Shown here: positions 27,302 to 46,003 of the stretch, in pieces | Layout of the letters: every line of letters starts with the position of its first letter | How positions within the stretch are numbered: position 1 is the stretch's first letter | DNA from: Clostridiales bacterium | GTDB taxonomy: Bacteria > Bacillota > Clostridia > Oscillospirales > CAG-382 | DNA length: 64,000 bases | Assembly: GCA_003343885.1 (NCBI GenBank) | Contig: QAKH01000079.1 | Location: 60,607 to 124,606 of the forward strand | Reading direction: 5' to 3' | Program-made: the position numbers and the translations under genes | The notes under the pieces: model-generated | What the model was told of the DNA's origin: nothing | The model's database searches: none | What the model saw: only the letters and a program-made list of their open reading frames with translations

Positions 27302-27896
27302 GTGGGCCCTGCAACTCGTGCAGCTGCTCGCAAGTCGTTGCATAGACCCCGCATTCCGATTCCCCGCAGGTGCCGCGGCCCAGCATACGGTGGCGGCCTG
27401 CATGGAGGCGCTGGAGCGAGAGTTCGCGGGCGTGAGCCGTCAACGGATCGTAGACTTCTGCGTATGTCAGGTGTATGCCATGACCTTTTACAAGAAAGGG
27501 ACGCTCCGGCAGCGGTGGCGCGTCGCCCACTCCTTCGGGGCCAAGGCGCTGGAACGATTCCGCCGCAACGAACAGAGGCACCGCTATTGGGAGGATCGCT
27601 GGCTCGCGCAGCACGGAATCGTGCGTGCGCAACTCGTGGAGATGCTCCGCGACCGCACGCAGCACCCGCTCGCGAAGTTCATATATCCCGAATACGAGGA
27701 CCGCACCAAGCGCCGGCAGGCGGGCTCGGAGGCGGGGCTTTACATATGCACGCGGTCGACGCTCCTGTGGACGCCCTTCTCGCCCGTATGCCGTGCATGC
27801 GCCATGGCCGTTCAGTGCCGCACGCTGGAGCAGCGACGCTATCCGGAACTGCTGCGAATACGCGAAGAGCAATACGGGAAAGGAGGCGGCAGATGA
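27294..27896 (+). CDS. Hypothetical protein coupled to the sigma factor (C-terminal Cys cluster)
   Basis: The ATG at 27294 overlaps the end of the sigma gene. Its TGA overlaps the helicase ATG. C-x13-C-x2-C-x5-C lies near the C-terminus. Confidence 0.5.
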   Translation: MSKWALQLVQLLASRCIDPAFRFPAGAAAQHTVAACMEALEREFAGVSRQRIVDFCVCQVYAMTFYKKGTLRQRWRVAHSFGAKALERFRRNEQRHRYWEDRWLAQHGIVRAQLVEMLRDRTQHPLAKFIYPEYEDRTKRRQAGSEAGLYICTRSTLLWTPFSPVCRACAMAVQCRTLEQRRYPELLRIREEQYGKGGGR

Positions 27897-29248
27897 CGGC
27901 ATCGCGCAACGCACTCTCGGCCGAGTATCTCTACGAACTCTACTCGACGGCCATACGCCACGAGGCCGTATGCGCCGTACTCGTAGCGCACATGCGGCGC
28001 GAGTACCTTCCCGACCGTACATTCCAACATATTCACGAGTTTTTCGTGAACCATTACCGGACCTACAAATCGCCGCCCTCATATGCCATGCTTGCGCAGA
28101 CATTCGCCTCGGATTACGATGCACTGGAACTGGTGAACACTTTCCGTGAGTACGACGGAGAAAACAACCCCGAAGCGGTTGTCGACATGCTCGAAACGTA
28201 CATCAAGGGTGTGCGTCTGCAGGCCGTATACTCCGAGGTGGGGAAACTCTACAACCAGAGCCGGCAGGCCGAGGCCGAAGCGAAACTCAAGGAATACGCC
28301 GAGTGGCTCGCGGGATTCACACTCAAGGATTCGGCATTCGTGGACGTGGTGAAGACCTTCGCCATGCGTTTTCATCGCAACCGCCGCCGTGAGGAGGAGC
28401 TGCAGGCATCGGGCGTGAAGCCCGTCACACGCTTTTATATTCCCGATCTGGACGAACTGAATGCCGGACGCAGCCTCCGCGGACAGCTATCGTGCATCCT
28501 CGCGTCGACGGGCGTGGGAAAGAGCCACATGGCAAAACATATAGGCTTGCGGGCCGACATCGACGACGGACTGCACGTGCTGCATTTCCAGCTCGAAGGT
28601 TCCGAAGAAGAGGCACTCAATGCATACAGCGGGGGACTCATAGCCCGCAACGCCTTCTATTTCGAGCGGGGGCATATCGCCGAGGTGGAGATGCGCCGCT
28701 TCGAAAAGGAGATCGAGCGCTATGCCGGGAGTATAACCGTACGGTCGTTCCCACGCTTCGCGGCACGCATATCTACTATCGATATCCGAAACGGCATCGC
28801 CGAATACCGCAAAATCAACGCCCGAACGCCCGACATCGTCATCATCGACTCGATGGACCTCTTGAACGACGCCTCCCGCCGCCAGTGGGGAGCCGAGCAC
28901 GAACGCTCGAAGCGCATCGCCGTGGCGAACGACCTGAAGGACCTTGCTGCCGACGAGAATGTATGGATGGTCGTCACGTATCAGGCGACGATCGAAAACC
29001 GCGACTGGCTAAACGACGAGAACAACGTCCTCACGGAGTACAACTGCTCGGAGGCGAAGGGGCTCGCACGGCCATGCACCCACCTTATATCGCTAAATCA
29101 GTCCGCGGCCGAGCGCGAGGCCAACGTCATGCGTCTGCATGTGGCAAAGAGCCGGTTCTTTCGCAAGGGAGATACTTTTCGCATAGCCACGGACTATGAC
29201 AACGAAACCTTTTACGATTCGGCAAGGACGCTGGGACTCAGACGGTAA
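27893..29248 (+). CDS. dnaB: DnaB-like replicative helicase (RecA-fold)
   Basis: The ATG at 27893 forms an ATGA overlap; the upstream part of the listed ORF is Arg/Pro/Gly junk. Walker A ILASTGVGKSH and Walker B DIVIIDSMDLL are present, with replisome neighbours on both sides. Confidence 0.75.
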   Translation: MTASRNALSAEYLYELYSTAIRHEAVCAVLVAHMRREYLPDRTFQHIHEFFVNHYRTYKSPPSYAMLAQTFASDYDALELVNTFREYDGENNPEAVVDMLETYIKGVRLQAVYSEVGKLYNQSRQAEAEAKLKEYAEWLAGFTLKDSAFVDVVKTFAMRFHRNRRREEELQASGVKPVTRFYIPDLDELNAGRSLRGQLSCILASTGVGKSHMAKHIGLRADIDDGLHVLHFQLEGSEEEALNAYSGGLIARNAFYFERGHIAEVEMRRFEKEIERYAGSITVRSFPRFAARISTIDIRNGIAEYRKINARTPDIVIIDSMDLLNDASRRQWGAEHERSKRIAVANDLKDLAADENVWMVVTYQATIENRDWLNDENNVLTEYNCSEAKGLARPCTHLISLNQSAAEREANVMRLHVAKSRFFRKGDTFRIATDYDNETFYDSARTLGLRR

Positions 29249-30275
29249 ATTCGGATGATGTTTGTTCTTGCCTTTCTTTCTCCATCGTTTGGTATTCCTT
29301 CAATAACACTTTTACCCGATGGTATGCAGAATCGTCTTTCCCTTCCCCTTTTTCGAACAACACGATATCCTCTCGATATACATCGTCGAGGATATCGTAT
29401 TTCAGAAGTAATCGCACCATATCGAAACTCGATTTTTCCCATACCGCATTGAATACACCAAATGCCAACTCATAGCGGGATAATTGAGCACGATATAAAT
29501 GTGCATAGTATGCTTTGTCCGTATCGTTGAGAGAAGATTGGTCGATAGTATTAAGGACATAATACATATTCCGGAAATATTGTCCGAGAAAATGTCCATT
29601 CTCTTCATAAAGTTGCCCGTACACTTCGGCAACAGCTTGGACTCTGTCTTTCGCTGATAGTTTATCGCTATATGCAATGGTCAGGGCTATGGCGGACCAT
29701 TCTTGCTTGTTAGTGTCTACGCATTTGATATCTCGGTACATATTTATCTTAATTTCCGAAACAGTTTTTTTTGTTTCAGCGAACAATTTAGATTGGCAGT
29801 CTGTCAGTTTTGGAAAACGGGATGTGCCGTTGTTATTGGTTTTCAACCCGCGTATAATCAAATGTAATGCAAGATATTTATCCGCCTGTCGGGTATAGGC
29901 TCTGAATGCGTCATATCCGGATATTGTATTTCCGTTCTCCTGATATATGACCGCCTCGACTTTCTGCTGATGCAGGCCGAGCAGATTAAAAATCTGTTCC
30001 CGCTCGGCATTCTTACGCCCTTCATATACCGTCCGAATAGCGATAATAAAAGCCAGAGATCCGAACACTGCACCCCAAAGCGTACCGAACGCGATCCACG
30101 CATTATAATCGGAAGACAAACCATCATGGTAAATACAGAAATAACAGATAATTGGTGGTATGGAGAATATGCCACCTATAATCCACCAAAAACAAGGGGA
30201 AGCTGGTTGCATTGTGGCCGTTACCGCCTTTATCATTATAGCTTTTATTGCCTTGATTTTTTCCATTTTTTTCAT
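29238..30275 (-). CDS. Membrane protein resembling putative phage abortive-infection (AbiC-like) proteins
   Basis: The Met at 30275 (MKKMEKIK...) shares one nt with the upstream TAA (TAATG). Two N-terminal TM helices are present (FWWIIGGIFSIPPIICYFCIY; AWIAFGTLWGAVFGSLAFIIAI). The block GHFLGQYFRNMYYVLNTID...YYAHLYRAQLSRYELAFGVFNAV recalls that family from memory. The gene is AT-rich and on the opposite strand to the replication genes. Confidence 0.55.
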   Translation of the reverse strand: MKKMEKIKAIKAIMIKAVTATMQPASPCFWWIIGGIFSIPPIICYFCIYHDGLSSDYNAWIAFGTLWGAVFGSLAFIIAIRTVYEGRKNAEREQIFNLLGLHQQKVEAVIYQENGNTISGYDAFRAYTRQADKYLALHLIIRGLKTNNNGTSRFPKLTDCQSKLFAETKKTVSEIKINMYRDIKCVDTNKQEWSAIALTIAYSDKLSAKDRVQAVAEVYGQLYEENGHFLGQYFRNMYYVLNTIDQSSLNDTDKAYYAHLYRAQLSRYELAFGVFNAVWEKSSFDMVRLLLKYDILDDVYREDIVLFEKGEGKDDSAYHRVKVLLKEYQTMEKERQEQTSSEFTV

Positions 30276-31441
30276 TATGATTTGGTGCTCAGCATGGGTT
30301 TCAGTTTGCCGTCGATAAAATGATTCGGTTTCCAACCGGTCAGTAGCTTGTCTACAAAAAAAGTATCTGCGGCTGATACTACTGTACCAACAACAGGTAT
30401 TAAACTGGATAGTTCCGTAACAGTAAAGCGTGCTGCTTTGACACCTTTTTTGTCCGCCAGCGTCGGAGCCAAAACTTCGTTTATATATTGATTGACCAGA
30501 TCGGCATCCCGGTCGATTGTTCCTAGCCACTTCCTGAATTTATCGCCTTCTTCGAGTAATTTAAGTAGCTGTTCACCAGTTATCTGTCCTGCGACGAATG
30601 CTGTCCCGATACTGGGACAATCTGCCAAGACATGCTTGTTAAATTCTATGATCTCTCCTTCGCTTTTGCGTGTTCGCTGTATGACATCGGCGATTTGCAG
30701 ATTCATCAGCGATGAGTGCAGATCGCTGGTAGCAAACTCACTCATAAACTGTCCTGCGATGTAATTGTCGCCCCGGGCCTCGGCCAATGCCAATATGATT
30801 GAAGAGTAACTGAGACCGGCTTGTTCCCGTTTGGTGAATATGTTATTGATCGTATCGAAATCAATATTGGACCGAACGCTATATGTTGCGGAAAATGGAC
30901 CAACGGGATGTTGGTCCTTTACGATATCAATGCGTAAAGGTTCTACCTGGACATATTCTGGAACATAGGTGTGTAGTATTTCTGCCACAGCCTGGGTTAG
31001 GTAGACAGTATTTAGGAAGTCTGCATCAATCATTTGCCCAATAACAGGCTCATAAGCATGCGCCTGAGCAATTTCAGAGAAACTATCAGCAAATTTCATA
31101 TTGTACATACTGTTGTGAACTACCTGTTGATGGGCTGTATAAAGGATGTTGTGCACACTGACATTATTACCACGGAACAACTCTACTCCATAGTGGATGT
31201 CGGCGCCAAATGGTTGTGTTGCAACACCCAGAATATTCTGTCGGATATGAAGTTTCAAGCGTCTGCTTTCAATCAGTTCTCGCAATGTATCTTCACCGAA
31301 TGTCTTCAATAGTGTTACCATTTCGGCCGTATGCGCCAATACGTTAACCTCTCCGTAAAAAAGCATCGTGTCAATAAGGAACGACATATCGAGTCGTCCA
31401 TCGTTCAATTCTCTGGATTTAATGCAAATCTTCTCGAACAT
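30275..31441 (-). CDS. Unknown 388-aa protein, upstream partner of the Abi-like gene
   Basis: Clean ATG ORF, AT-rich and coupled to the downstream gene. No P-loop, nuclease or other motif was recognised. It has a hydrophobic C-terminal segment (LSSLIPVVGTVVSAADTFFV). Confidence 0.65.
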   Translation of the reverse strand: MFEKICIKSRELNDGRLDMSFLIDTMLFYGEVNVLAHTAEMVTLLKTFGEDTLRELIESRRLKLHIRQNILGVATQPFGADIHYGVELFRGNNVSVHNILYTAHQQVVHNSMYNMKFADSFSEIAQAHAYEPVIGQMIDADFLNTVYLTQAVAEILHTYVPEYVQVEPLRIDIVKDQHPVGPFSATYSVRSNIDFDTINNIFTKREQAGLSYSSIILALAEARGDNYIAGQFMSEFATSDLHSSLMNLQIADVIQRTRKSEGEIIEFNKHVLADCPSIGTAFVAGQITGEQLLKLLEEGDKFRKWLGTIDRDADLVNQYINEVLAPTLADKKGVKAARFTVTELSSLIPVVGTVVSAADTFFVDKLLTGWKPNHFIDGKLKPMLSTKS

Positions 31442-31527: not shown

Positions 31528-32559
31528 GTGCGAACAGACGATAACACATACCTTATCGAGGAACTAACTCGTGAACTTTCGGCCCGCCGCGACGGATCGC
31601 GTCGCAACCTCATAGCCCGGTGTCCTTACTGCGGCAAGGAGGGTAAGTACGGCGTTTATATCGGTCCCGAGACGGCCCGCAAGAAACCTTTCATGGCGCA
31701 CTGCTTCTCGTGCGGGGCTTCGACGCACTCGTTGGAGCGAACGCTCGAAGCCCTCGGGCGCATGGACCTGCTGCCGACGCGCACGACCGACCCCGAAGCC
31801 AAGCTGGACTGCAGCCTGCTCTTTCCGCTCGATGCGGGCGAGGAGATCGACGATGGACTGGGTATCGTGGAGCTGCCGGAGTTCTGGCGCCGCACCTTCC
31901 TGCATCCTTACCTCAAGGGACGCGGCTTCACGGCCGACGACTACGAGTTCTTTCCGGTGGGAACCACACGGGGCCTGAACTTCCGCTACGACGATTACGT
32001 GATTTTTCCGGTTATCGACTCCGGCGACACGGTAGGATACGTCGCCCGCCATCTTTGGCCCAAGGCCGAGATCGATGCCTACAACCGCCGGGCGAAATTC
32101 ACGGGCGACTACGCCATACGGCGCTTTCGCAACTCCACGCAAAACGACTTCGTGAAGCTGCTTTACAACTATGACGCGGTACATGAGGACAGCACCGAGA
32201 CGGTCGTTCTCTGTGAGGGCATATTCGACGTGGTGGCTCTCACACGCAAGCTCGACCTATACGAGTCGGAGCGCGTGGCCGCCGTAGCCACCTTCGGAAA
32301 GAAAATATCGCAGGCCCAGATTTACAAGCTTCAGACGAAAGGCGTGCGCAACGTCGTGGTGGGATACGACGGGGATGCTGTGGACGCCACGAAGAAGACG
32401 GCCGAGGAACTAAGCCGCTACTTCGAGGTGCTCGTGGCCGACATTCCCGATCCCAAAAAGGACTGGGAAGACCTCTCTCCGCAGGAGATCTACGACATCT
32501 TCGCCTACCGCCTCAAAACGCCCGTCGAGTACAAAATCAATAAAATCCAGCAACTATGA
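31528..32559 (+). CDS. dnaG: DnaG-type primase (zinc finger plus Toprim)
   Basis: GTG start. Zinc ribbon CPYCGKEGK...HCFSCG is followed by Toprim-like VVLCEGIFDVVAL and VVGYDGDAVDA. Its TGA overlaps the dnaE ATG. Confidence 0.75.
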   Translation: MRTDDNTYLIEELTRELSARRDGSRRNLIARCPYCGKEGKYGVYIGPETARKKPFMAHCFSCGASTHSLERTLEALGRMDLLPTRTTDPEAKLDCSLLFPLDAGEEIDDGLGIVELPEFWRRTFLHPYLKGRGFTADDYEFFPVGTTRGLNFRYDDYVIFPVIDSGDTVGYVARHLWPKAEIDAYNRRAKFTGDYAIRRFRNSTQNDFVKLLYNYDAVHEDSTETVVLCEGIFDVVALTRKLDLYESERVAAVATFGKKISQAQIYKLQTKGVRNVVVGYDGDAVDATKKTAEELSRYFEVLVADIPDPKKDWEDLSPQEIYDIFAYRLKTPVEYKINKIQQL

Positions 32560-34262
32560 ACGATCTAACCCGATGGCTCGACAGCCAAAATATAGACTAC
32601 TGTGTCATGGACAACGAGGTGGTCGATATACCGGAGTTCGGCCGCCTGTTCCGCGCCGACCTTACGGGCGTGAAGAGTATCTTCCGCCAGCGGGGAGATG
32701 AGCAGGTCTTCAACCTGATGGAAGACCCGCAGACTCTTATCGACGAGGGTATTTTTCACGTCGCCTTTCCATTCGGCGACAACTGGTACTACTATGACCT
32801 GCGCGGGGAGTTTTCCCTGAATATCCTGCGGCATATCGGTCGGCCCAAGCCTGACGGGTGCGATGTCGAGTTCGTCAATCTGGGCGTTCACACTCCCTAC
32901 GAACTGCTCAACGCTTCGGGCGATATCGGGGCATGGGTCCGAAAGGCCAAATGGATGGGCCATACGGCCCTCGGTCTCTGCGATCGCAATACGATGGCCG
33001 GAACACTGGCGTTCCAGAAAGAGTGCGCCAAGGCTGGAATTAAGCGCGTCTTCGGCTATTCGCTCACGCTGGATGGCGACGGAACGGAAGTCCCGTTGAA
33101 GGTCTACTGCCAGAGCCAGCAGGGATTGCAAAACCTGCTGCGCATCCAGAAAGCGGTGATGGTGGACCGCGAGGACGGGAGGATCGACATGGAGCGCCTC
33201 ATGGCCCACGGACGCGGCAATGTCCTCGTGCTTGGAACGCTCGCAGCGGAGTGGATGACGGAGAACCGCCCGGCCATCGGGCGACTGCGCGAAGCCTTCG
33301 AGGCCCTCTACTACCAGATCGATCCCACGGAGTTCAAGGCCGACCGTATCGACGTGCAGCGGCTGGAGAATATGCGGCGATACTTCCACGAGTTCTGCAA
33401 GAAAGGCGTGTTCGAGGTGGAACCGGTGCTGATTCCCGATTGCTACTACATCGACCAAGCCGACGCCCGCAGCAAAATCATACTCAACAAGATCGCCACG
33501 GGCGCCGCGCACGAGCAGAGCAACGAACAGTATTTCCGATCCGCCGGAGAGCTTCGGGACAAGCTGCGGCCGTTGTTCGACCCCGAGCGGTGGGATGTGG
33601 ACGAACTGTTCCGGCGGATGTGCCGCAATACGGTCGTGATCGCCCAAGGGGCCGAAGCGGCATACCGGACGGACGCCGTCTTCATGCCGCGCTACGACAT
33701 GACGCCGGACGAGAAAGCGAAGTACGGCGACACGCATACGATGTTCCTTTCGCTGCTCGAAGAGGGTTTTTCCAGATTGGTACCTGCGGAAAAAGAAGCC
33801 GAATATCGGGAGCGTCTCGATAAGGAGATTTATATCCTCGAATCGACGGACAACATAGACTACTTGCTGGTTCAGTACGACACCGTGAACTGGGCGCGCC
33901 GCAACGGCATCCTCGTAGGCTGCGGTCGAGGCTCGGCGGGCGGCTGTCTGGCCTTGTACCTGCTGGGCATCACGCTGATCGACCCTGTGAAGTACGGTCT
34001 GTTGTTCGAGCGTTTCCTACTGCCCGAACGCGCCGGATTGTATGCGGCCTGCACCACGCGTATCGTAGGACGCATCGACTCGAAGGACAGCTACCGCATC
34101 GGATTGGAGAACAGCCGCGAGATCCTGCTGGACCGCGATGCCCGGCTCGTGGTACGCCGCGGCGACGAACAGATCGAGGTCTATGCCGACGAACTTCGGG
34201 AAGGAGACGACATCTTGTTCGACAACCGCGATTTACTGTTTGAAATAGACCGACAATCATGA
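32556..34262 (+). CDS. dnaE: DNA polymerase III alpha (DnaE), N-terminal fragment: PHP domain and first half of palm
   Basis: The PHP motif VNLGVHTPYELLNASG is present. GCGRGSAGGCLALYLLGITLIDPVKYGLLFERFLLPER matches the conserved GRGS...LLFERFLNPER block. A 70-aa Cys-initiated extension follows before the stop. Confidence 0.85.
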   Translation: MNDLTRWLDSQNIDYCVMDNEVVDIPEFGRLFRADLTGVKSIFRQRGDEQVFNLMEDPQTLIDEGIFHVAFPFGDNWYYYDLRGEFSLNILRHIGRPKPDGCDVEFVNLGVHTPYELLNASGDIGAWVRKAKWMGHTALGLCDRNTMAGTLAFQKECAKAGIKRVFGYSLTLDGDGTEVPLKVYCQSQQGLQNLLRIQKAVMVDREDGRIDMERLMAHGRGNVLVLGTLAAEWMTENRPAIGRLREAFEALYYQIDPTEFKADRIDVQRLENMRRYFHEFCKKGVFEVEPVLIPDCYYIDQADARSKIILNKIATGAAHEQSNEQYFRSAGELRDKLRPLFDPERWDVDELFRRMCRNTVVIAQGAEAAYRTDAVFMPRYDMTPDEKAKYGDTHTMFLSLLEEGFSRLVPAEKEAEYRERLDKEIYILESTDNIDYLLVQYDTVNWARRNGILVGCGRGSAGGCLALYLLGITLIDPVKYGLLFERFLLPERAGLYAACTTRIVGRIDSKDSYRIGLENSREILLDRDARLVVRRGDEQIEVYADELREGDDILFDNRDLLFEIDRQS

Positions 34263-36430
34263 GAATAACGAAGATCACACACGAAAAAGCTCCGGTCGAA
34301 GCTCTCGATACGGAGGCAGACGAGGGCTACCTGCAAGGTCCCGGCCGCGTGCTGGCCGACGTCGATGTCGATTATCAGGCCGACCGTCGTCAGGAGGTCA
34401 AGGAGTATCTGGAGCGCCGCTACAATATCGAAGGGCGGCAGCGGGTCTTCTCGGCCGGGACTTTCTCGACCATGAAGCTCAAAGCCTGCCTGAAGGACGT
34501 CTGCCGCGTGCATAAGATTCCCGTGTCGCTGGCTAACTATATCTCGGCGATCATCGGCTCTTCCGATGCGACATGGACCGACCTGTTCCGCCTTGCGGCC
34601 CGCACGCCCAAAGTCCGCAAGTTCGTGAACGATTACCCGCAGGCCGTCGAAGATATGCGCCCGCTGCTGGGCCAGCCTCGTTCGGCCTCGGTGCACGCCT
34701 CGGCCATCCTGATCACGCCGGAGCACCGGGACGGAGAGCCGTCCGAATGTTTCGACTTCACGCCCGTAAAACGGGTGGACGGCATGCTCGTCAGCGAGCT
34801 GGACGGCTACTCGTTGGATGAAGTGGGTCTTCTGAAGAACGACTGCCTCGGCATTCTGGAACTTACGAAGATACAGTCCGTACTGAATGAAATCAACCGT
34901 ATCTACGATTCGGGCATCTCCTTCGAAAAGATCGTACTCAGCGGACTGGATGACGAAAAGACCTACGGACTGCTCTGCGAAGGCTACACGGCCAACATCT
35001 TCCAGCTATCCTCGGCAGGCATGACCCGTTATCTGCAGGATATGCAGCCGGCGTCGATCGGTGATCTGATCGCGGCCAATGCGCTCTACCGTCCGGCAAC
35101 GCTCGACTCCGGCGCGGCGGAGAACTACCTGCGCTGCCGTCTGGGCGAGGTCGCTCCGGTCTACCTGTGGGGAACGTACGATGCCCTGAAAGATACCTGC
35201 GGGCAGTTGATCTATCAGGAGCAGGTCAGCCGCCTCGTCCGCGACGTGGGCGGCTTTTCATTGGCCGAAGGTGTGCGGCTCGTCAAGCTGATCTCCAAGA
35301 AAAAGATCGACGTTATTCATGCTATGCGGGAGAAGTTCATGACGGGAGCAGCAGAGAAGGGATGCCCGAAGGACGACGCCCTGCGCATCTGGGATCTGAT
35401 CGAAAGCGCCGGAAGCTATCTCTTCAACCTATCCCACGCCTCGGCCTACGCGATTACGGCTTACGTCGGTGCATGGCTCAAGGCTAACTATCCCACGGCC
35501 TTCTATACCGTGGCCCTGCAATACGCCGATGACAAGGAGATCGTTACGCTGATGTCCGAAATGGAGCGGTGCTCTGCAGCCCGTATCGTGCCGCCCGACA
35601 TCAACCTCTCGCAGGTGCAGTTTTATACCGACTACCATAGCGACAGTATCTACTGGTCGTTCGGCCGTATCAAAATGGTCGGCGTCCGAACGGCGGAACA
35701 TATCGTTCGCGAGCGGGAGCGATTCGGAGAGTTTACGGGTGTCGGGGATTTCGTCCGCCGTATCTTCCGCCACCGGCTCAAGAAATACCGTACTTGGGAG
35801 GACGACCTTCCGCCAGCCGAGGCGGAACGTGTTCCCGTAAACGCCCGCCATGTCCGTAACCTGATTTTGGCCGGCTGCTTCGATACGGTGGAACGTATCG
35901 CATCTGTTACCGAGCGTTACGGCATCCTTCAGCGTGCCGCCGCGGAGCTGGGTTTCGCGCTCGACGAGCGGGACTATCCGCCGGAAGAGATCGCCAAGCA
36001 CCACTTCTGGGCCCGGCAGCAGATCGCCGTGTCGGGCATCGGATCCGTGGACTACCGCCGCATCTTCGACGAGTCGGCAGTTCGTGCCCGCATCAAGGGC
36101 CGCGCGTCGTACATGAGCCTTCACGACGCCCTCGTGATGGAGAACGAAGGGAAAAAAGTCGCCGTCTGTGCAACCGTAACCGATGTGGAGGAGCTATCCT
36201 ATAAGGACAGGATGACGGGCGACCGGGTCGCTTTTTGCAAGATTATATTGCAACAGAACACCGACACGATCGAGGCGGTCTGCTGGAACGACTTTTTCAG
36301 CGCCCGCCGTGCCGAGATCATGAGGCTCAAGGACCGTATTGTGGTACTCACGGGTATCATCCGTTACAGCGACTTCTCGGGCGCCAACACCCTGCATACG
36401 ACCAAAACATCCATATTATCGCAAGAGTGA
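34259..36430 (+). CDS. dnaE: DNA polymerase III alpha (DnaE), C-terminal fragment: catalytic Asp motif, fingers, HhH, OB fold
   Basis: ATGA overlap with the N-fragment. After about 33 extra residues comes ADVDVDY (equivalent to PDFDVDF). GLLKNDCLGILELT, YLFNLSHASAYAITAYVGAWLKANYP and a C-terminal OB-like segment follow. Confidence 0.85.
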   Translation: MRITKITHEKAPVEALDTEADEGYLQGPGRVLADVDVDYQADRRQEVKEYLERRYNIEGRQRVFSAGTFSTMKLKACLKDVCRVHKIPVSLANYISAIIGSSDATWTDLFRLAARTPKVRKFVNDYPQAVEDMRPLLGQPRSASVHASAILITPEHRDGEPSECFDFTPVKRVDGMLVSELDGYSLDEVGLLKNDCLGILELTKIQSVLNEINRIYDSGISFEKIVLSGLDDEKTYGLLCEGYTANIFQLSSAGMTRYLQDMQPASIGDLIAANALYRPATLDSGAAENYLRCRLGEVAPVYLWGTYDALKDTCGQLIYQEQVSRLVRDVGGFSLAEGVRLVKLISKKKIDVIHAMREKFMTGAAEKGCPKDDALRIWDLIESAGSYLFNLSHASAYAITAYVGAWLKANYPTAFYTVALQYADDKEIVTLMSEMERCSAARIVPPDINLSQVQFYTDYHSDSIYWSFGRIKMVGVRTAEHIVRERERFGEFTGVGDFVRRIFRHRLKKYRTWEDDLPPAEAERVPVNARHVRNLILAGCFDTVERIASVTERYGILQRAAAELGFALDERDYPPEEIAKHHFWARQQIAVSGIGSVDYRRIFDESAVRARIKGRASYMSLHDALVMENEGKKVAVCATVTDVEELSYKDRMTGDRVAFCKIILQQNTDTIEAVCWNDFFSARRAEIMRLKDRIVVLTGIIRYSDFSGANTLHTTKTSILSQE

Positions 36431-36960
36431 GACCCATTATCATTGCCATCGTGGGTGCTTCGGGTTCCGGCAAGACCACGCTATCGAAGTACCTGCAACG
36501 TAAATACGGCATTCCCGCCATCGTATCGACCACCACACGCCCGCGCCGCGAGGGTGAGGTCGAAGGCGAGGATTATTTCTTCGTGCGCAGCACCCGGGGC
36601 ATCGGCCGGGAAGCGATGCTGACCTATACCCGGTTCGGGAAGCACGAATACTTTTCTCTGCGCAGACAGCTCCCTGAGTCCGGGTACTGCACTTACGTCG
36701 TGGACGAGAACGGCATCCGCGCCCTCAAACAGACGGCCGGAACGGAGTACGACGTCTTTACGGTCTACATTTCCTGCCGTACGGAAAATCTACCATTCCG
36801 AGGCGTCGATGCCGAGCGTATCGAGCGCGACAGCCACCGCCGTCAGGTCGATTACTCCCTGATCGACGTGGTGCTGGGGAATAACGGCACCGAGGCGGAA
36901 TTCCGCGAAGGGGCCGACAAACTGATGCAAATTATCGGACAATGGCAGCACCTGCGGTAG
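36427..36960 (+). CDS. Guanylate-kinase-like P-loop nucleotide kinase
   Basis: A GTG at 36427 overlaps the dnaE TGA (GTGA). IVGASGSGKTT P-loop, and TTRPRREGEVEGEDYFFV matches the GMP-kinase signature region. Confidence 0.7.
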   Translation: MRPIIIAIVGASGSGKTTLSKYLQRKYGIPAIVSTTTRPRREGEVEGEDYFFVRSTRGIGREAMLTYTRFGKHEYFSLRRQLPESGYCTYVVDENGIRALKQTAGTEYDVFTVYISCRTENLPFRGVDAERIERDSHRRQVDYSLIDVVLGNNGTEAEFREGADKLMQIIGQWQHLR

Positions 36961-37706
36961 AGAATAGGATATACACGGCTATCGGTCTCGACTTCGAGAC
37001 CGGAGGGCTTGATCCCGTGCGTTGCGCCTGTACGCAGATCGCCCTCGAAGCCATCCGGCTCGATACGCTGGAGGTGTTCGACCGTTATGCGGCTTATATC
37101 GCCCAGTACTGCAAGCAGGAGCTGGGTGCGGCCCGCCGCAAGGTGCTCCGCTCGAAGCACGAGCTGGCGCAGCCCACCGAGCGGATGGACTACGAGCCGC
37201 GAGCGCTTGAATATTCGGGCATCACGATGGAGCGTCTCGAAGCGCAGGGCGTCGATCTGAAAGAGGTCGCCGGGGCCGTGCTCCGCTTCGCCGAACGGGC
37301 GACGCTCAGCAAGGGCACACAGTGCAAGCCGGTACTCATCGGCCAGAATATCACCTTCGACATCGGCTTTCTTACGCAGCTGATGAGCTATGCCGGCCTT
37401 ACGAAGGAGTACGAGAAAACGTTTGCCGGAAAAACGGACTTCTATGGCAACTTCCAGCCTCTCTATCTGGATACGATCCTGCTGGCACGGCTGGCATTGG
37501 CCGCCGATACCGGAGTTACGTCCTACAAGCTGGAGCTGGTGGCCGAGCGGCTCGGTATCGAGCTCGACGACGCCCATGATGCCGGAGCCGACGTCGCGGC
37601 GACGCTTGAGATCGTCCGAGTCTGCGCGGCCCGTATGCGTAACAGTGAGGGCGCCGTGACAGAAACCGCCCCCAAGGAGAAGACCAGAAATCACTTTCTG
37701 ATATGA
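36942..37706 (+). CDS. dnaQ: DnaQ-like DEDDh 3'-5' exonuclease
   Basis: Exo I IGLDFETGGLD, Exo II LIGQNITFDIGFL and Exo III DAHDAGADVAAT. Confidence 0.8.
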   Translation: MAAPAVENRIYTAIGLDFETGGLDPVRCACTQIALEAIRLDTLEVFDRYAAYIAQYCKQELGAARRKVLRSKHELAQPTERMDYEPRALEYSGITMERLEAQGVDLKEVAGAVLRFAERATLSKGTQCKPVLIGQNITFDIGFLTQLMSYAGLTKEYEKTFAGKTDFYGNFQPLYLDTILLARLALAADTGVTSYKLELVAERLGIELDDAHDAGADVAATLEIVRVCAARMRNSEGAVTETAPKEKTRNHFLI

Positions 37707-39935: not shown

Positions 39936-40063
39936 CCAGATCTGAAAATCGCCAACTTCAACTTACGGGAATAGACAAGCGGGGCTCGTGTATTGCACTA
40001 TTATCGTGCGGCACGAGCTTGACTTGTTCCATAAGTGGGTGTTTGGCGATACCTCGGATCTGG
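39936..40063. ncRNA. Candidate structured RNA or recombination site: 128-nt imperfect extended hairpin
   Basis: Nested complementary segments: ccagatc/gatctgg, tcgccaac/gtttggcga, actta/taagt, gga/tcc, acaag/cttgt and gctcgtg/cacgagc. A T-rich run at 40086..40095 follows. It is non-coding and lies at the phage/non-phage junction. The strand is undetermined. Confidence 0.35.
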
Positions 40064-40115
40064 ACAATGTCGGGTTCGTGCTTTCTTATTTTTTTAATTC
40101 GTTGTTCTATAACGT

Positions 40116-40754
40116 ATGCCGGCAAAATCCAATAGCACTCCCGCGGAGCGATTGAAAATAGTCATAGAAAATGCAGGGATGAGTACATACGCACTATCTC
40201 GTCATATAGGGTTTCAGCGTCCGGAAAATCTCTATCAGATCTTGCGCGGAAAATGCGGGATCAGCAAGAATATGGCAAATATCATTCATCAGAAATTTCC
40301 GCGATATTCTATCGACTGGCTTATTTACGGCGACAACGATTCTCAAGAAACTCTTCACGATAACATTGTCCGTATTCCGCTTTATAACAATTATGAAACG
40401 ATGTTATTCCCGCCGGTTCTTCCAGCGGACGAAATACTTATATTTTCTTCGACTCTTGCCGCAAATGCGCAGATAGCCATCACATATGCCGATGAGCGGT
40501 TCAACCCGGATTCTCGCAAATCTGTATTATTATTACGAAAGAAGGCTGTGGCAGAGGAAATTTGTTATGGGAATATGTACTTCATCGTTGCCGATCATCT
40601 GCGCCTTGTGCGTCGTGTATACAAATCTCCCGGGAATTCGAAGCGACTCCGATTAGCCGTCTCGCCAGAAACCGCCGCCGATGATACAACGATCGAGCGA
40701 ATACAAATTCGTTCGATGTGGATTGTTTGCACGGTTATCAGTCGTATGATCTGA
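40116..40754 (+). CDS. XRE-type HTH regulator with a LexA/S24-like C-terminal domain (repressor-like)
   Basis: The N-terminus has an HTH (MSTYALSRHIGFQRPENLYQILRGKCGISKNMANII). The C-terminal beta-rich part (MYFIVADHLRLVRRVYKSPGNSKRLRLAVSPE) resembles the S24 fold, but no GDSM-type Ser motif is seen. Confidence 0.55.
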   Translation: MPAKSNSTPAERLKIVIENAGMSTYALSRHIGFQRPENLYQILRGKCGISKNMANIIHQKFPRYSIDWLIYGDNDSQETLHDNIVRIPLYNNYETMLFPPVLPADEILIFSSTLAANAQIAITYADERFNPDSRKSVLLLRKKAVAEEICYGNMYFIVADHLRLVRRVYKSPGNSKRLRLAVSPETAADDTTIERIQIRSMWIVCTVISRMI

Positions 40755-40912
40755 AAGCCGAATGCTTCCCTCCTGCTACATCACGGGTAAAATTTCAATG
40801 GCATATGAAGAAAAAATCCACGGGAAGCATCTGATACTAAAATATTGAAGCATATTCGATCCGTTGAAAAACGGAACACGCGAGGCCACTTCTCCGGCAT
40901 GCCATAGAAAAT

Positions 40913-41623
40913 TCAATCGAATTCGTTGACGCCGACCCCCAAGTATTGGCAAGCCTTTTTCTTGCTGATTCCATCTTTGATCATACGTTCGTAACTCTCC
41001 CGCTTTTGGTTGTGCCCCTCGATTCGGTCGAACAACATCCCGACCAATATATCCACTGCTTCCGAAAAGGCCGCTTCACCTTCGGGGGTGTTAAAATCGA
41101 TCTTACAAAAAGGGGCTCGCTCCCTGTGCAAGATCAAATAATAGACACCCGAAATCAGCAGGGCAATAACGCCGCGGATATTGATATGGGCAGACTTGAA
41201 CAGGACATCGTAATATTCGACCAGATTCAGGTTCATCAGATCTCTTATCTGAGCCGTTCTTCTGGTCGTATCATTATCCGTAGACATTTCCCAGAGCAAT
41301 AACTTCTGCATGACGGCATTATTGCATAACTCTTTGTACAGTGTCTTCAGTGTTTTCGCAAAAAACGACTTGGGGCCCAAATCGCTTAGCTCCGACATCT
41401 TGATCGTGTCGTTGATCCAGAAGTCGTATCTTTGGGCTAACTTGTCATAAAGATTGTCGATAGAGCCATAGCGTCTATAAAAGACGGGAGGCTCCAAACT
41501 GGCATTGGCCATCAGTTCCGTTACAAGCACTTTGTCGAATCCGTTTCGGATGACCAATTTCTCGAGCTCGGTCATGACGGCATTGTCTATTTCAGCATTC
41601 GTGCGTCTCACCCTCCCTGCCAT
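40913..41623 (-). CDS. TetR/AcrR-family transcriptional regulator
   Basis: N-terminal TetR HTH pattern (IDNAVMTELEKLVIRNGFDKVLVTELMANASLEPPVFYRRYGSIDNLY) followed by a helical ligand-domain-sized remainder. Confidence 0.8.
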   Translation of the reverse strand: MAGRVRRTNAEIDNAVMTELEKLVIRNGFDKVLVTELMANASLEPPVFYRRYGSIDNLYDKLAQRYDFWINDTIKMSELSDLGPKSFFAKTLKTLYKELCNNAVMQKLLLWEMSTDNDTTRRTAQIRDLMNLNLVEYYDVLFKSAHINIRGVIALLISGVYYLILHRERAPFCKIDFNTPEGEAAFSEAVDILVGMLFDRIEGHNQKRESYERMIKDGISKKKACQYLGVGVNEFD

Positions 41624-41795
41624 TTTGTATAATCCGATTTATAGTTATAATGAATGTATGTATAATTCCGCCTCAAAAATAGTGAAAAATGGATGGCATG
41701 GCAAGAATTTATTTCTGTTTGCGGTTAATTGCAATCAAGACCGCATCGAACATTCTTGCTCTTCCTACAGTTTAGATCAATGATAAGGATGTAAC

Positions 41796-41833
41796 AAAAG
41801 AGAGACGGGAATTCAGTTCTCGTTCTCTCTTTT
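41796..41833 (-). terminator. Terminator-like hairpin downstream of the PLP-enzyme gene
   Basis: aaaagagagacg ... cgttctctctttt forms an inverted repeat about 45 nt after the stop at 41878 on the - strand. Confidence 0.45.
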
Positions 41834-41877
41834 ATTCGTCGTTATATCATGGCTGCTTCGATGGTGGGTAGTCGAGT

Positions 41878-43083
41878 TTAGATAATCCCGTATTTTTTAC
41901 CTGTTTCGTAAAAGACATCGAGCAAGCGATCGCAATCTTCTTGAGTGTGGCATGACATCACGCCGATTCGGATACGACACATCTTGGGAGGAACGACCGG
42001 CGGGAAGATCGCATTTACAAATATTCCCCGGTCGTAAATATCTTTTATCAGATCAGTCAGCACATACTCATCGCCTATGATTACGGGAATGATGGGTGTA
42101 ACAGAATGTAATGTATTGAATCCCATCTCATTCAATCGTGAACGTACATAATTATGATTCCGGTCGAGCGCTTCTCTTTGTTCCGGATGTCTCTTGAAAT
42201 CCTGCAACACTTCGTATGCGGCAGCGCATACACTTTGAGGAAGGGCCGTCGAGTACATGTTGCTCCGTGCATAAACTCTCAGGTAATCGATGATTTTCTG
42301 ACTTGCCGTGATGAATCCGCCGACTGTCCCGATCGCCTTGCTCAAGGTGCCGGTCACGATGATGTTATCACGCTCTGTGATACCGAAATGACTCAAGGTG
42401 CCAGCGCCCCCGTCCCCGATAATACCTGTCGCATGTGCATCGTCGATCAATAAGAGCGCATTGTATTTCTTTGCAAGGCGCAGCAATTCCGGCAGATTCG
42501 CAAGGTCTCCGTCCATGCTGAATACGCCATCGGTAACAATCATGATTCCGTATGGATATTGTTCCGCATTCTGCGAAAGAATCTTTTCCAGAGAGCGCAT
42601 GTCGCTATGAAGGTAGCGTGTCATTTTCGCTCCCGACATCAATGCTCCGTCGATGAGGCTCGCGTGGTTCAGCTTATCGAATACCAATAAATTATTCGAA
42701 CCGACCAAACCTACCAAGGCTCCAATATTGGCCGTGAAGCCGGAGGAAAACAAGATCGTATCGTCAAATCCGAGCAATTGCGAAATTTCTTTCTCCAATT
42801 TATTCTGATAATCCGATGTTCCGCTCAACAAAGGTACTCCGCCCGTACCTATGCCGCATTGCTGGATTACTTCGGCAGCTTTCTTGACCGCCGCCGGGCA
42901 AATCGTTGCATTCAGATAGCTGTTAGAGCCGAACATCAGCATCTTGTTTACCTGACCGGTATGCCTGTCCAAAATTTCGACTTCTCGATCACATGCGGAA
43001 ATCATGGGGGATCGGGCATATATATTCAGCCCCATTCTTTCATGCTCTTTGAAATGCGATTGAAAATTTTCAATCTTCGCCAT
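41878..43083 (-). CDS. Alpha-oxoamine synthase family PLP enzyme (Spt / BioF / KBL / cysteate-acyltransferase-like)
   Basis: FGSNSYL, SGFTANIG, DDAHATG and the PLP-lysine motif GTLSKAIG occur in family order. The Met at 43083 (MAKIENF) is preferred over the one at 43140. The specific subfamily cannot be assigned by eye. Confidence 0.85.
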   Translation of the reverse strand: MAKIENFQSHFKEHERMGLNIYARSPMISACDREVEILDRHTGQVNKMLMFGSNSYLNATICPAAVKKAAEVIQQCGIGTGGVPLLSGTSDYQNKLEKEISQLLGFDDTILFSSGFTANIGALVGLVGSNNLLVFDKLNHASLIDGALMSGAKMTRYLHSDMRSLEKILSQNAEQYPYGIMIVTDGVFSMDGDLANLPELLRLAKKYNALLLIDDAHATGIIGDGGAGTLSHFGITERDNIIVTGTLSKAIGTVGGFITASQKIIDYLRVYARSNMYSTALPQSVCAAAYEVLQDFKRHPEQREALDRNHNYVRSRLNEMGFNTLHSVTPIIPVIIGDEYVLTDLIKDIYDRGIFVNAIFPPVVPPKMCRIRIGVMSCHTQEDCDRLLDVFYETGKKYGII

Positions 43084-43374
43084 AATGTTGCCGCCCGGGC
43101 TCGTTTTACACGCTGCGTAGTCGATTTTGAAGCTCTTCATATGAATATTGATGATGGATTAAACCCCTATATTGATATTCGTATTATGCATAACGTTGTT
43201 TTGTATATACAAATATATAATATTTATTTTAACACATATCCAATAAGTCTATATTTTTTTTGCTTGGCAATTCAAATTCGCTGGTAAGCGGCAAAATACG
43301 AGCGAAATCATATTCCGGAAATATTTTCACTCATTTTTTTAGATAAATAAATTGAATCTAAAATGTTTTTTGTA

Positions 43375-43382
43375 TATATTTG
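43375..43382 (+). promoter_or_regulatory. Candidate -7 box (TATATTTG) upstream of the rSAM gene
   Basis: It fits TAnnTTTG and lies about 60 nt before the ATG at 43444, within a 300-nt AT-rich divergent intergenic region. The -33 element is weak (ATTG). Confidence 0.35.
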
Positions 43383-43443
43383 TTGTGGGCTAATGGCTAT
43401 CTATACGATTCAGATCCTCTGAAGGGTTGCGAAAGTATCGGAT

Positions 43444-44766
43444 ATGAGTTCGGATACGGTGTACAGTACCGGGTGGAATTTATTAAATGTGAGCACGAGT
43501 ATGGATAATCGGCGAATTTTGAATGATCGACGTATTACACGTGATGAAGTTCTATCTTCATTGGTCAATTTGCGTCAATTAACCTTTGAGGTTACCGATG
43601 CATGTAACCTGCAATGCAAGTATTGCGGGTACGGCGACTTATATTTCGGGTACGACAAACGCGAAACGAAATTTCTGGCATTCGAACAAGGCAGGATCCT
43701 TCTCGATTATCTCGTGTCTTTGTGGCGCACATGTCCAGCACATTCTGCCGCACCGCGAACTTATCTCAGTTTTTATGGCGGAGAACCGTTGATGAACATG
43801 GATTTCATCACGCGCATGGTCGATTATGTCGAAAAACTCGATGTGCATAGAAATTTCAATTTTTCGATGACGACCAACGCCATGTTGCTCGATCGCTATA
43901 CGGACTATCTTGTCGAGAAGCGTTTTCACTTGTTGATCAGTCTCGATGGCGATAAATATGGACAAAGTTACAGGGTAACTCATGACGGGAAGAATTCGTT
44001 CGATCGGGTCTATAAAAACGTAAAGGACCTACAGGCGAAATATCCGGACTATTTTACCCGATATGTAGAATTCAATGCCGTGCTTCATAACCGCAACAGC
44101 GTTGCCCGAACACATGATTTCATCATGCGCGAATTCGGGAAGAAACCGACCATATCGGAACTGAACAATTCGGGGATTCGTCCTGATAAGGTGGAGGAGT
44201 TCCAGCAAACCTACCGGAACATGATCGAGAGTTTGCACGAATCGGAAAACTACGAAAAACTTGCTGAAGAGATGTTTGTGGCAGAACCTAATACACATGA
44301 TTTGCTATTGTATTTGCACCAATACAGCGGGAACGTGTTCAGGGACTACAACAGCCTTTTCCTGGACGAATCCAAACTGCACTACACTCCAACGGGAACC
44401 TGTTCTCCATTCAGTAAGAAACTGTTCGTTACGGTCAATGGCAAAATTCTGCAATGCGAGCGCATAGATCATAAATTCGCTCTCGGACAGTTATCTGCAA
44501 ATGGAGTTTCCCTCGACTTGGATGCTATCGTAGCACGATTCAATGGCTATCTGGAGAAACTGCAACGTCAGTGTTCGCTCTGTTACAGGAAAAGAAGTTG
44601 TATTCAGTGTATGTACTATATTGAGGATCTGGACGCGACACAACCAATCTGCCGCGGCTATATGAACCAAGAGACATTCGAACAGTATTCGTCGTATTGT
44701 TTGGCTCATCTCGCCCGTCATCCGCATTTGTACAAGAAGTTGATGGAAGATGTTTTGATAGACTAA
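43444..44766 (+). CDS. Radical SAM/SPASM peptide maturase (GG-Bacteroidales type)
   Basis: CNLQCKYC (CxxxCxxC) lies in FEVTDACNLQCKYCGYG. C-terminal SPASM-like Cys clusters are present (CSPFSKKLFVTVNGKILQCE; CSLCYRKRSCIQCMY). GG-leader precursor genes sit adjacent. Confidence 0.85.
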   Translation: MSSDTVYSTGWNLLNVSTSMDNRRILNDRRITRDEVLSSLVNLRQLTFEVTDACNLQCKYCGYGDLYFGYDKRETKFLAFEQGRILLDYLVSLWRTCPAHSAAPRTYLSFYGGEPLMNMDFITRMVDYVEKLDVHRNFNFSMTTNAMLLDRYTDYLVEKRFHLLISLDGDKYGQSYRVTHDGKNSFDRVYKNVKDLQAKYPDYFTRYVEFNAVLHNRNSVARTHDFIMREFGKKPTISELNNSGIRPDKVEEFQQTYRNMIESLHESENYEKLAEEMFVAEPNTHDLLLYLHQYSGNVFRDYNSLFLDESKLHYTPTGTCSPFSKKLFVTVNGKILQCERIDHKFALGQLSANGVSLDLDAIVARFNGYLEKLQRQCSLCYRKRSCIQCMYYIEDLDATQPICRGYMNQETFEQYSSYCLAHLARHPHLYKKLMEDVLID

Positions 44767-44778
44767 ATTGCGAATCCC

Positions 44779-45996: not shown

Positions 45997-46003
45997 GTTT
46001 CAT

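Follow-up and report, generated by a model that had tools for sequence, protein, structure and literature searches.

The 64,000-nucleotide stretch of DNA analysed here (the window; contig QAKH01000079.1 of a Clostridiales bacterium assembly, positions 60,607 to 124,606) contains a phage replication module in which the alpha subunit of DNA polymerase III (Pol III alpha, DnaE) is encoded by two overlapping open reading frames (ORFs), dnaE-N (ORF1) and dnaE-C (ORF2). The two proteins are extended on either side of the break, and these extensions together form an insert next to the catalytic aspartates of the enzyme. In our interpretation, to which we give a probability of about 0.7, the insert is a domesticated, catalytically dead split Hint domain, which would reassemble the phage polymerase non-covalently.

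A DNA polymerase III alpha subunit encoded in two halves

ORF1 encodes 568 amino acids (aa) and ORF2 723 aa, ORF2 being in the -1 frame relative to ORF1 (Table 1). The two ORFs have the four nucleotides ATGA in common, in which the start codon of ORF2 (34259-34261) overlaps the stop codon of ORF1 (34260-34262). The ORF2 frame opens five codons before the ATG at 34259, its earliest start codon, and the junction is predicted to be of the termination-reinitiation type. Inspection of the overlap revealed no slippery heptamer, and a scan of the junction for promoters and terminators gave no signal above chance.

The Pfam model of the palm domain (PF07733) is divided between the two proteins: residues 398-493 of ORF1 match profile positions 4-99 (E = 1.1e-26) and residues 24-198 of ORF2 match positions 93-260 (E = 2e-23). 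As a single palm domain is divided in this way, ORF1 and ORF2 are two halves of one Pol III alpha, cut within the palm domain. ORF1 also contains the PHP domain (E = 1.3e-14), and ORF2 contains the fingers (DNA_pol3_finger, E = 1e-35), the helix-hairpin-helix (HhH) domain (HHH_6, E = 5e-16) and a sub-threshold match to the OB-fold (PF01336, E = 0.047). The domain set of a Pol III alpha (PHP, palm with its catalytic Asp motif, fingers, HhH and a weak OB-fold) is thus complete across the two proteins. Residues 1-104 of ORF1 (32556..32867) form a further conserved domain ahead of PHP, with a mean pairwise identity of 61% and no Pfam match.

At its C-terminal end, ORF1 reads ...LLFERFLLPER and continues for 76 residues (AGLYAACTTRIVGRID...EIDRQS; the complete tail is AGLYAACTTRIVGRIDSKDSYRIGLENSREILLDRDARLVVRRGDEQIEVYADELREGDDILFDNRDLLFEIDRQS). 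ORF2 begins with 33 residues (MRITKITHEKAPVEALDTEADEGYLQGPGRVLA), directly followed by DVDVDY, the Asp residues of which we take, from general knowledge of DnaE, to be the catalytic ones of the Pol III alpha palm. A preliminary description of this DNA had placed the interruption between the LLFERFL and DVDVDY blocks, with an ATGA overlap and about 33 extra residues in ORF2, and both the ORFs and the Pfam matches agree with it. The same description gave ORF1 an extension of 70 aa beginning with a Cys. The extension is present, with a length of 73-76 aa (starting after PER or after PER-AGL), and the Cys has no special standing, since this residue (Cys499) is Arg in relatives with 92-94% identity and K, P, D or E elsewhere. 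The span 34041-34357, originally assigned to the insert, extends from Tyr496 of ORF1 to Ala33 of ORF2.

The split is a conserved, selected and ancient gene arrangement. The best 120 homologues of ORF1 (57-100% identity) nearly all comprise 566-588 aa, the few shorter ones being fragments, and they share the same type of tail, save two aberrant entries. Relatives of ORF1 are present on at least 578 IMG/VR viral contigs, many of which are 90-115 kb long. A scan of one genome per species also recovered 26 Bacteroidales loci with an ORF1 relative, in Alistipes, Bacteroides, Parabacteroides, Dysgonomonas, Butyricimonas and Rikenellaceae, which indicates that prophages of this kind reside in Bacteroidales genomes. 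ORF2 is a separate gene downstream of ORF1 on the same strand in all 100 loci that have a complete ORF1 and a match to ORF2; four further loci, not counted among the 100, end too close after ORF1 to place ORF2. The spacing between the two genes is at most 50 nt, often with the same ATGA, in 34 of the 100 loci, 300-800 nt in 17, 1300-1400 nt in 33, and 1500-2600 nt in 16.

The split is also present in cultured phages. In Bacteroides phage BS-TP1, a Dda-like helicase gene (L111 6213..7538, gp2) directly follows the first half, and in Cellulophaga phage phiST the halves are gp044 and gp045, each annotated as 'DNA polymerase III alpha subunit'. Protein-level matches like those of phiST were also obtained for phages phi13:1 and phi19:2 and for Tenacibaculum phage Larrie. 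A megablast search of the locus against GenBank phages gave no match; the phage relatives were found by a protein-mode search.

The position of ORF2 in the -1 frame and its 4-nt overlap with ORF1 could also stem from an error in sequencing or assembly, from decay to a pseudogene, or from programmed -1 frameshifting that yields one polypeptide. These explanations are excluded by the recurrence of the same break in about 100 independent loci, in which the frames differ and of which two thirds have 0.3-2.5 kb of other genes between the halves, as well as in cultured, propagating phages. The lack of a slippery heptamer and the purifying selection on both halves also speak against them, and we consider their probability negligible. 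A sequencing frameshift, which the preliminary description had kept in mind, is ruled out by the presence of the same break in all of these related loci.

The gap between the dnaE halves is a cargo site, and the commonest arrangement (33 of the 100 loci) comprises about 1.3 kb of inserted DNA. Cargo genes are located in the gaps of L010, L015, L016, L023, L027, L087, L089, L094 and L111. NUMOD4+HNH_3 genes are located between the halves in L023, L087 and L089, and a GIY-YIG+NUMOD1 gene in L027. Other cargo found across the relatives includes genes for N6/N4 DNA methylases, PIF1/Dda-like helicases and Bro-N+NUMOD4+HNH proteins. In the window, where the halves directly overlap at ATGA, there is no free-standing homing endonuclease gene between them.

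Fold and residues of the insert

Distant contiguous relatives (L107, L109 and L110) read FERFLxPER-xxxSLP-DIDxDF, with a six-residue linker at the site where the window carries 76 + 33 extra residues. The insert is in frame, and the site that it occupies, with PER on one side and the catalytic DxDxD motif on the other, is highly conserved. This site was classified in the 150 representatives (50%-identity clusters) closest to ORF1. A contiguous form with a linker of at most 10 aa was found in 68 of them and a contiguous form with an insert of 13-96 aa in 17. Split forms, in which the protein ends 41-100 aa after PER, account for 56; two representatives are truncated, with a tail of at most 10 aa, and in seven the N-anchor was not found. 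The window belongs to the long split type, with tails of 70-84 aa, which a neighbour-joining tree, used as a rough guide, places in one clade beside contiguous forms whose inserts comprise 68-96 aa.

The insert also occurs in cis, in representatives P0129, P0269 and P0257-P0261. In P0129 (L114; JGI 3300042659 contig, 4321 bp, 7..3165), dnaE-N and dnaE-C are re-fused in frame and the whole insert is kept (..NNRDLLFCMGYNTGVLRISNVKAV..), with TTG in place of the ATG of ORF2 and no stop codon; this re-fusion is known from a single contig, in which an assembly error is possible. Shorter inserts (representatives P0256-P0385) are both split and contiguous (45-73 aa). In gp044/gp045 of phiST (L112 4411..8011), the N tail comprises about 47 aa, ending in ...IIEGDDLIKY before the stop codon, and the C-piece about 17 aa (MKIINIEQNTAPKLVNG). 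The short split forms are scattered among insert-free DnaE sequences in the tree, which suggests repeated gain or loss, or a poorly resolved tree.

An AlphaFold2 model was built of the fused insert of the window with short extein anchors, based on an unpaired alignment of 72 rows. The model is all-beta, with a mean predicted local distance difference test score (pLDDT) of 79; the values are 84-96 over most of the insert and dip in the split loop. The N-piece, derived from ORF1, forms strands at E25-39, 42-47, 52-56, 60-65 and 68-73, and the C-piece, derived from ORF2, forms strands at E99-107 and E111-124 (pLDDT 85-94). When this model was compared with the PDB by Foldseek, ranks 1-40 were occupied exclusively by Hint-fold proteins, with probabilities of about 0.9-1.0 and a best E of 7e-4, the top matches covering 88-121 aligned columns. 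These include the TFIIB, VMA, RadA, CDC21, PolII, KlbA, DnaB, RecA and Prp8 inteins, the gp41-1, Npu DnaE, Aes123 PolB1 and AceL NrdHF split inteins, and, among non-splicing proteins, Hedgehog autoprocessing domains and a bacterial intein-like (BIL) domain (6tyy, 1at0, 2lwy). In BFVD, a database of predicted viral structures, many named matches are terminases, ribonucleotide reductases, DnaB helicases and other proteins of intein-host kinds, and two matches are annotated as intein splicing regions. The adoption of a Hint fold by the insert is supported by this model.

For comparisons at the sequence level, 34 non-redundant paired N- and C-pieces from related loci were aligned (alignment A2). 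The five top matches of the A2 profile among all PDB sequences are inteins (PI-PkoII, the Pab PolC intein, the TFIIB mini-intein, the Aes123 PolB1 split intein and the KlbA intein), with E values of 0.02-0.05, all over the block B region. The fused 103-aa segment of the window alone matches the Pfam family Intein_splicing below threshold (E = 0.0057). Sixteen of the 34 A2 members, scanned singly, also give sub-threshold matches to this family (best E = 1.5e-4), and one alignment spans profile positions 48-139, through the split into the C-piece (E = 4.4e-4). A single-sequence phmmer search of the PDB with the fused insert gave E values of 0.24-0.8, with ribosomal protein L27 first and the Pab PolC intein second.

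A comparison with six inteins by hhalign, run in local mode as the global mode gave a meaningless alignment, reached E = 0.0086. In its register, DRDA falls on the TKDH of block B, the Met1 residues of ORF2 and of the Npu DnaE C-intein coincide, and the Asp conserved in the C-piece (LD) falls on the block F Asp (YD). The C-pieces comprise 33-35 aa and the break is located between blocks B and F, as at the canonical split-intein site. With the common Met1 register, this bears out the resemblance to split inteins in sizes, split position and residue patterns that the preliminary description had pointed out, and Hint or intein proteins come out on top in both the Foldseek and the A2 profile comparisons of the extensions. 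Overall, the sequence support for a relationship to inteins is weak but concordant. The structural evidence is stronger, and it rests mainly on one confident AlphaFold2 model.

Thirteen of the 34 fused inserts in A2 (e.g. the L064-type) also give weak matches to Pfam DrmE_C, the C-terminal domain of DrmE, a protein of DISARM. These matches (best E = 2e-4) cover the same block-B-like strands and may reflect a related beta motif or chance. An alignment without extein anchors (A3) misaligned the C-pieces and was discarded. As the first 6-10 residues of the C-fragment are misplaced in alignments A4 and A5, the first C-strand rests on two fused rows only.

The substitution pattern indicates that the insert is under purifying selection and is maintained. 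The median ratio of nonsynonymous to synonymous substitution rates (dN/dS; Nei-Gojobori method, 63 non-independent pairs) reaches 0.23 in the insert, compared with 0.09 in the flanking core, and the mean pairwise identity is 46% for the N-piece and 65% for the polymerase core. Several motifs are invariant or nearly so, namely the DA of DxDA, YADxL (YADEL), GD(D/E), DxxD (DNRD) and GYxQG. In the C-piece, Met1 is invariant or nearly so, G99 is invariant and D93 is nearly invariant. In natural split inteins, the N-piece is acidic and the C-piece is basic. The family has the same polarity, with a mean net charge of -7.5 for the N-piece and +1.3 for the C-piece, the first 12 residues of which have +2.1; the corresponding pieces of the window have -6 and -2.

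PER is directly followed by Ala in the window; relatives have A, C, G, S, L, M or I at this position, where no nucleophile is conserved. The TxxH motif of block B, present as ITSGH in PI-PkoII, TVDH in the Pab PolC intein and TKDH in Npu DnaE, is aligned to D-R-D-A. The position of the block B His is occupied by Ala in all 34 paired inserts (A37 of the concatenated insert) and in all 21 ORF1 sequences. D528 and A529 are both invariant in the alignment of these 21 sequences, and an Asp precedes the Ala in at least 70% of the paired inserts. The family has Asp, Cys, Tyr or Phe at the block B Thr position. Directly behind the block F Asp, the window carries Thr, and its relatives carry C, T, S or A. 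The C-piece ends in ...GYLQGPGRVLA/DVDVDY in the window and in ...GGSLP, GGQLP, GKTMS or GGHASLP in relatives, and the final three residues of the insert (SLP or VLA) resemble the native linker. Block G is ambiguous in its exact register; none of the C-pieces of the sequences examined has a terminal Asn, and no +1 nucleophile is conserved, this position being variable (V, S, Q, T, A, C or M) or equal to the catalytic Asp. The absence of TxxH, of the terminal His-Asn and of a +1 Cys/Ser/Thr, already noted in the preliminary description, is seen throughout these alignments as DRDA, a missing Asn and a variable +1 residue. Class 3 intein chemistry was considered and rejected for lack of a conserved Trp-Cys-Thr triad; no Trp is conserved in the region of block B. 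Judged by its residues, the insert cannot splice by any known chemistry.

An active, non-canonical split intein, the halves of which would be trans-spliced through unusual residues, appears very improbable. It is true that class 2 and class 3 inteins splice without a nucleophile at residue 1, and that one subfamily of relatives exhibits a Cys directly after PER together with a His near the end (GGHAS/GGHSA). Such an activity is nevertheless difficult to reconcile with Ala at the block B His throughout, with the lack of a conserved terminal Asn, Gln or Asp, with a +1 residue that is variable or the catalytic Asp, and with a class 3 triad that is absent or not conserved; the natural re-fused form, moreover, keeps the insert.

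Canonical inteins are present in related phages at two other sites of ORF2, in homologues P0130, P0166, P0170, P0172, P0174, P0178 and P0209. The intein at the first site (YLFNK/C...TCN/SHA) comprises 279 aa with an HNH domain, or 183 aa in a mini form, and the one at the second site (GQL/CIAED...VVHN/CYQEQ) comprises 367 aa. ORF2 of the window is intein-free at both, at residues ~317 and ~391 (~35209 and ~35431). As canonical inteins are seen at these two sites, working inteins are recognisable in the DnaE family. At the PER/DxDxD site, where a survey of alleles had been suggested in the preliminary description, insert-free alleles were found; no active intein allele was found, including in an exact-pattern scan of IMG/VR for FERFLxPER followed by Cys.

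Several observations weigh against our interpretation of the insert. The scan just mentioned returned just one more dead split member. The Foldseek E values are modest (7e-4 to 0.1), and the TM-scores are 0.33-0.45, with values of 0.24-0.44 when normalised to the target. The highest Pfam score is 20.5 bits for a cutoff of 35.8, and no single sequence match reaches the curated threshold. The packing of the C-piece is modelled without support from co-variation, the AlphaFold2 alignment being unpaired. A second AlphaFold2 model, built for a natural fused homologue from a shallower alignment of 33 rows, has a mean pLDDT of 65, with values below 50 in the C-piece, and is usable for the N-piece only; for its confident N-piece strands, Hint proteins fill the top 27 Foldseek ranks, with E values of 0.04 or weaker. 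With 109 aa, the insert is shorter than any intein known to us, and its block A region is truncated. The C-piece of the window is not basic (net charge -2). Finally, the short inserts (45-70 aa, cis or split, e.g. in phiST) give weak SH3-like matches only, and because these relatives are too small for a full Hint fold, the ancestry could run the opposite way, from the short forms.

Some of these points would fit a lineage-specific, beta-rich accessory domain of phage DnaE unrelated to inteins, SH3-like or with a swapped hairpin, which would have converged on the Hint fold and been split by unrelated gene insertions. Inserts of 45-96 aa without catalytic residues are present at the site in many contiguous and split relatives, and the short forms have weak SH3/Tudor-like matches and, when split, are scattered among the insert-free forms in the tree. 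The motif RxGxxxxVxAxELxxGD of the insert is also found in the A-domains of P-type ATPases and in ribosomal protein L27. We consider such a domain improbable, as the top 40 structural matches are all Hint proteins and the five best profile matches are all inteins, and as the split point and the 33-35 aa C-piece are those of natural split inteins. Homing endonuclease genes between the halves, a site beside a catalytic motif, which is typical of inteins, and the occurrence of real inteins in the same protein family also argue against it.

Assembly of the two chains and comparison with known systems

In the assembly that we propose, the Hint domain would occupy the six-residue loop that connects the palm helix LLFERFLxPER to the catalytic strand (P/A)DxDxD(F/Y). 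Polypeptide 1 would comprise the N-terminal domain, PHP, palm-N and Hint-N, and polypeptide 2 would comprise Hint-C, palm-C, the fingers, HhH and the OB-fold, both being produced from one operon, in the window through the ATGA stop/start overlap. The acidic N-piece and the C-piece would refold into one Hint domain, as the halves of split inteins do. The N- and C-termini of the Hint fold are adjacent, and because they are side by side, refolding would juxtapose the palm fragments. The helix ending in ...PER and the DxDxD strand would in this way be brought to their native geometry, giving an active two-chain polymerase without a peptide bond.

With regard to the origin of the arrangement, an intein probably invaded the conserved PER/DxDxD loop and was then fractured at its endonuclease loop. 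The position of the break corresponds to the loop that holds the homing endonuclease in full-size inteins, which is also the site at which natural split inteins are split, and endonuclease genes are still located between the halves in relatives. Catalysis would subsequently have been lost and the domain kept as an assembly module, since the broken gene could no longer do without it. From the comparisons above, we infer the non-covalent association of the halves, its need for activity, and the intein ancestry.

The closest studied analogue is the split NrdA of Aeromonas phage Aeh1, in which NrdA-a and NrdA-b carry tails created by the insertion of a mobile endonuclease; no splicing takes place, and the enzyme requires these tails for its activity (Crona et al. 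2010, PMC3045599). As in the DnaE described here, the break lies in the active-site region of an essential phage enzyme, and the extra tails are missing in unsplit homologues. A mobile element fragmented the Aeh1 enzyme and its function was restored without RNA or protein splicing, which is what we propose for DnaE. However, the Aeh1 tails are described as unique sequences that arose during the insertion of mobE and not as Hint pieces (PMC3045599), and the family described here is far larger.

The Aeh1 case also provides an argument for a different role of the insert, since its tails, essential as they are for activity, are not needed for heterodimer formation (PMC3045599). By analogy, the insert could be a Hint-derived but passive fossil: the interfaces of palm, PHP and fingers would hold the halves together, and the tails would be tolerated or otherwise used, for instance in higher-order assembly or partner binding. 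This would agree with the existence of cis forms and with an insert that evolves faster than the core (46% vs 65% identity; dN/dS of 0.23 vs 0.09). A dN/dS of 0.23 still reflects constraint, however, and the motifs DA, YADEL, GDD, DNRD and GYxQG are near-invariant over 30-100% identity. The halves of Hint domains bind each other tightly in natural split inteins, which also counts against passive tails. We regard a passive or differently used fossil as unlikely, although the independence of heterodimer formation from the Aeh1 tails makes it a serious rival to a reassembling Hint domain.

Fractured genes with natural split inteins have been described in phage metagenomes, at gp41-1, NrdJ-1, IMPDH-1 and three DnaE loci (Dassa et al. 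2009, PMC2677866). As here, an essential phage replication gene is broken inside a Hint domain into two ORFs on the same strand, with a long acidic N-piece and a C-piece of about 35 aa. Free-standing genes for homing endonucleases separate the halves there, as NUMOD4-HNH and GIY-YIG genes do in relatives analysed here, though not in the window. In contrast, the inteins of the metagenomic genes keep Cys1, Thr, His, Asn and Cys+1 and splice, whereas none of these residues is present or conserved here, and their N-pieces comprise 88-105 aa, compared with 73-76 aa here.

In the cyanobacterial DnaE split intein (Ssp/Npu; Wu et al. 1998, as cited in PMC2677866), Pol III alpha is also encoded by two genes with half a Hint domain each. 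The break position within the Hint domain is the same as in the phage enzyme. The cyanobacterial halves are encoded at distant loci and trans-spliced, whereas those described here are adjacent and apparently unspliced. The insertion sites differ as well: the cyanobacterial one is located before CFNKSH, in the fingers region, and the phage one between PER and DxDxD, in the palm. Hedgehog and BIL domains likewise have a Hint fold without full protein splicing. With their N-terminal Cys and TxxH intact, they catalyse cleavage or ligation, whereas the insert has no catalytic residue and, unlike these domains, is split over two polypeptides and embedded in a host enzyme. Taken together, the insert has the fold, as predicted, the insertion logic and the split architecture of an intein, and is probably not a functional intein, as it lacks the four residue features that define one.

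No description of a dead split Hint domain, or of the DnaE split of Bacteroidota phages, was found in the literature, coverage of which was incomplete, so a prior description is possible. Neither the DnaE split described here nor a dead phage-DnaE intein appears in Dassa 2009, Benler 2021, a 2026 survey of bacterial polymerases, the BS-TP1 paper or Novikova 2015.

A more speculative view, and in our opinion a doubtful one, is that the dead Hint insert and the gap cassette together represent a selfish 'non-splicing split intein', which would enter intact phage dnaE genes by endonuclease-driven homing and fracture them without ever having to splice. Its pieces would reassemble the host enzyme non-covalently, and the element, once fixed, could not be lost; helicase, methylase and endonuclease genes would then settle in the gap. 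The scattering of split forms among insert-free forms in the tree and the diversity of the intervening cargo are consistent with this view, as are pairs of loci with similar cores and far more divergent inserts.

If the insert is a split Hint domain with an assembly role, a widespread natural intein has been turned from a splicing element into a structural connector of an essential replicase. The textbook fates of an intein are splicing, precise loss and death of the host, and this would be a further one, providing a clear evolutionary ratchet. The hundreds of diverged, naturally non-reactive split-Hint pairs could also serve as orthogonal heterodimerisation tags that juxtapose two termini without chemistry. 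The halves are currently annotated as 'PHP domain-containing protein' and 'helix-hairpin-helix domain-containing protein', or as two 'DNA polymerase III alpha' genes, and they must be seen as one enzyme for replication modules to be called correctly in the common ~100-kb gut phages and prophages of Bacteroidales. The cultured phages BS-TP1 and phiST make the hypothesis directly testable.

Gene neighbourhood and feature coordinates

Table 1. Features of the split dnaE locus and of its surroundings in the window
Feature	Position	Strand	Basis
SbcC-like gene	23877..26195		
DnaB-like helicase gene	27302..29248		
Low-GC island with AbiC-like gene	29238..31441	-	
Primase gene, DnaG/Toprim-type	31528..32559	+	Toprim_2, E = 7.5e-10
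dnaE-N (ORF1): N-terminal domain (~104 aa), PHP, first third of palm, Hint-like N-piece	32556..34262	+	Pfam; homologues
N-piece, ORF1 residues 493-568 (AGLYAAC...EIDRQS)	34032..34259	+	Missing in unsplit relatives; AlphaFold2; Hint matches
D-R-D-A, ORF1 residues 526-529, opposite T-x-x-H of block B	34131..34142	+	HMM alignments to inteins
ATGA start/stop overlap	34259..34262	+	Sequence; identical -4 overlap in many relatives
C-piece, ORF2 residues 1-33 (MRITKITHEKAPVEALDTEADEGYLQGPGRVLA)	34259..34357	+	AlphaFold2 strands; Npu DnaE alignment
DVDVDY, ORF2 residues 34-39, directly after the insert (PDxDxDF in unsplit enzymes)	34358..34375	+	Sequence comparison
dnaE-C (ORF2): C-piece, remaining palm, fingers, HhH, weak OB-fold	34259..36430	+	Pfam; homologues, mostly 725-742 aa
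Guanylate-kinase-like gene	36235..36960		
DEDDh exonuclease gene	36942..37706		

The stop codon of the primase gene overlaps the start of ORF1, which places both in one operon. The gene order of the module is the same as in Bacteroides phage BS-TP1. The pairing of primase and DnaE also agrees with the 'Gratiaviridae', in which it is the single feature reported for all members (Benler et al. 2021, PMC8008677), with no mention of a split.

The island at 29238..31441 has a GC content of 47%, compared with about 59% around it, and comprises two ORFs on the reverse strand between the genes for the DnaB-like helicase and the primase. The ORF at 29238..30530 matches Pfam putAbiC (abortive infection; E = 2.8e-14), and that at 30275..31441 has no Pfam match. 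The island looks like a defence or moron cassette within the replication module. A second low-GC stretch (about 44%), at 40000..46000, contains several ORFs of 200-440 aa on both strands. An ORF of 2060 aa is located at 7567..13749 on the forward strand; targets of diversity-generating retroelements of about 2000 aa have been reported in the phage group of BS-TP1 (PMC12694917).

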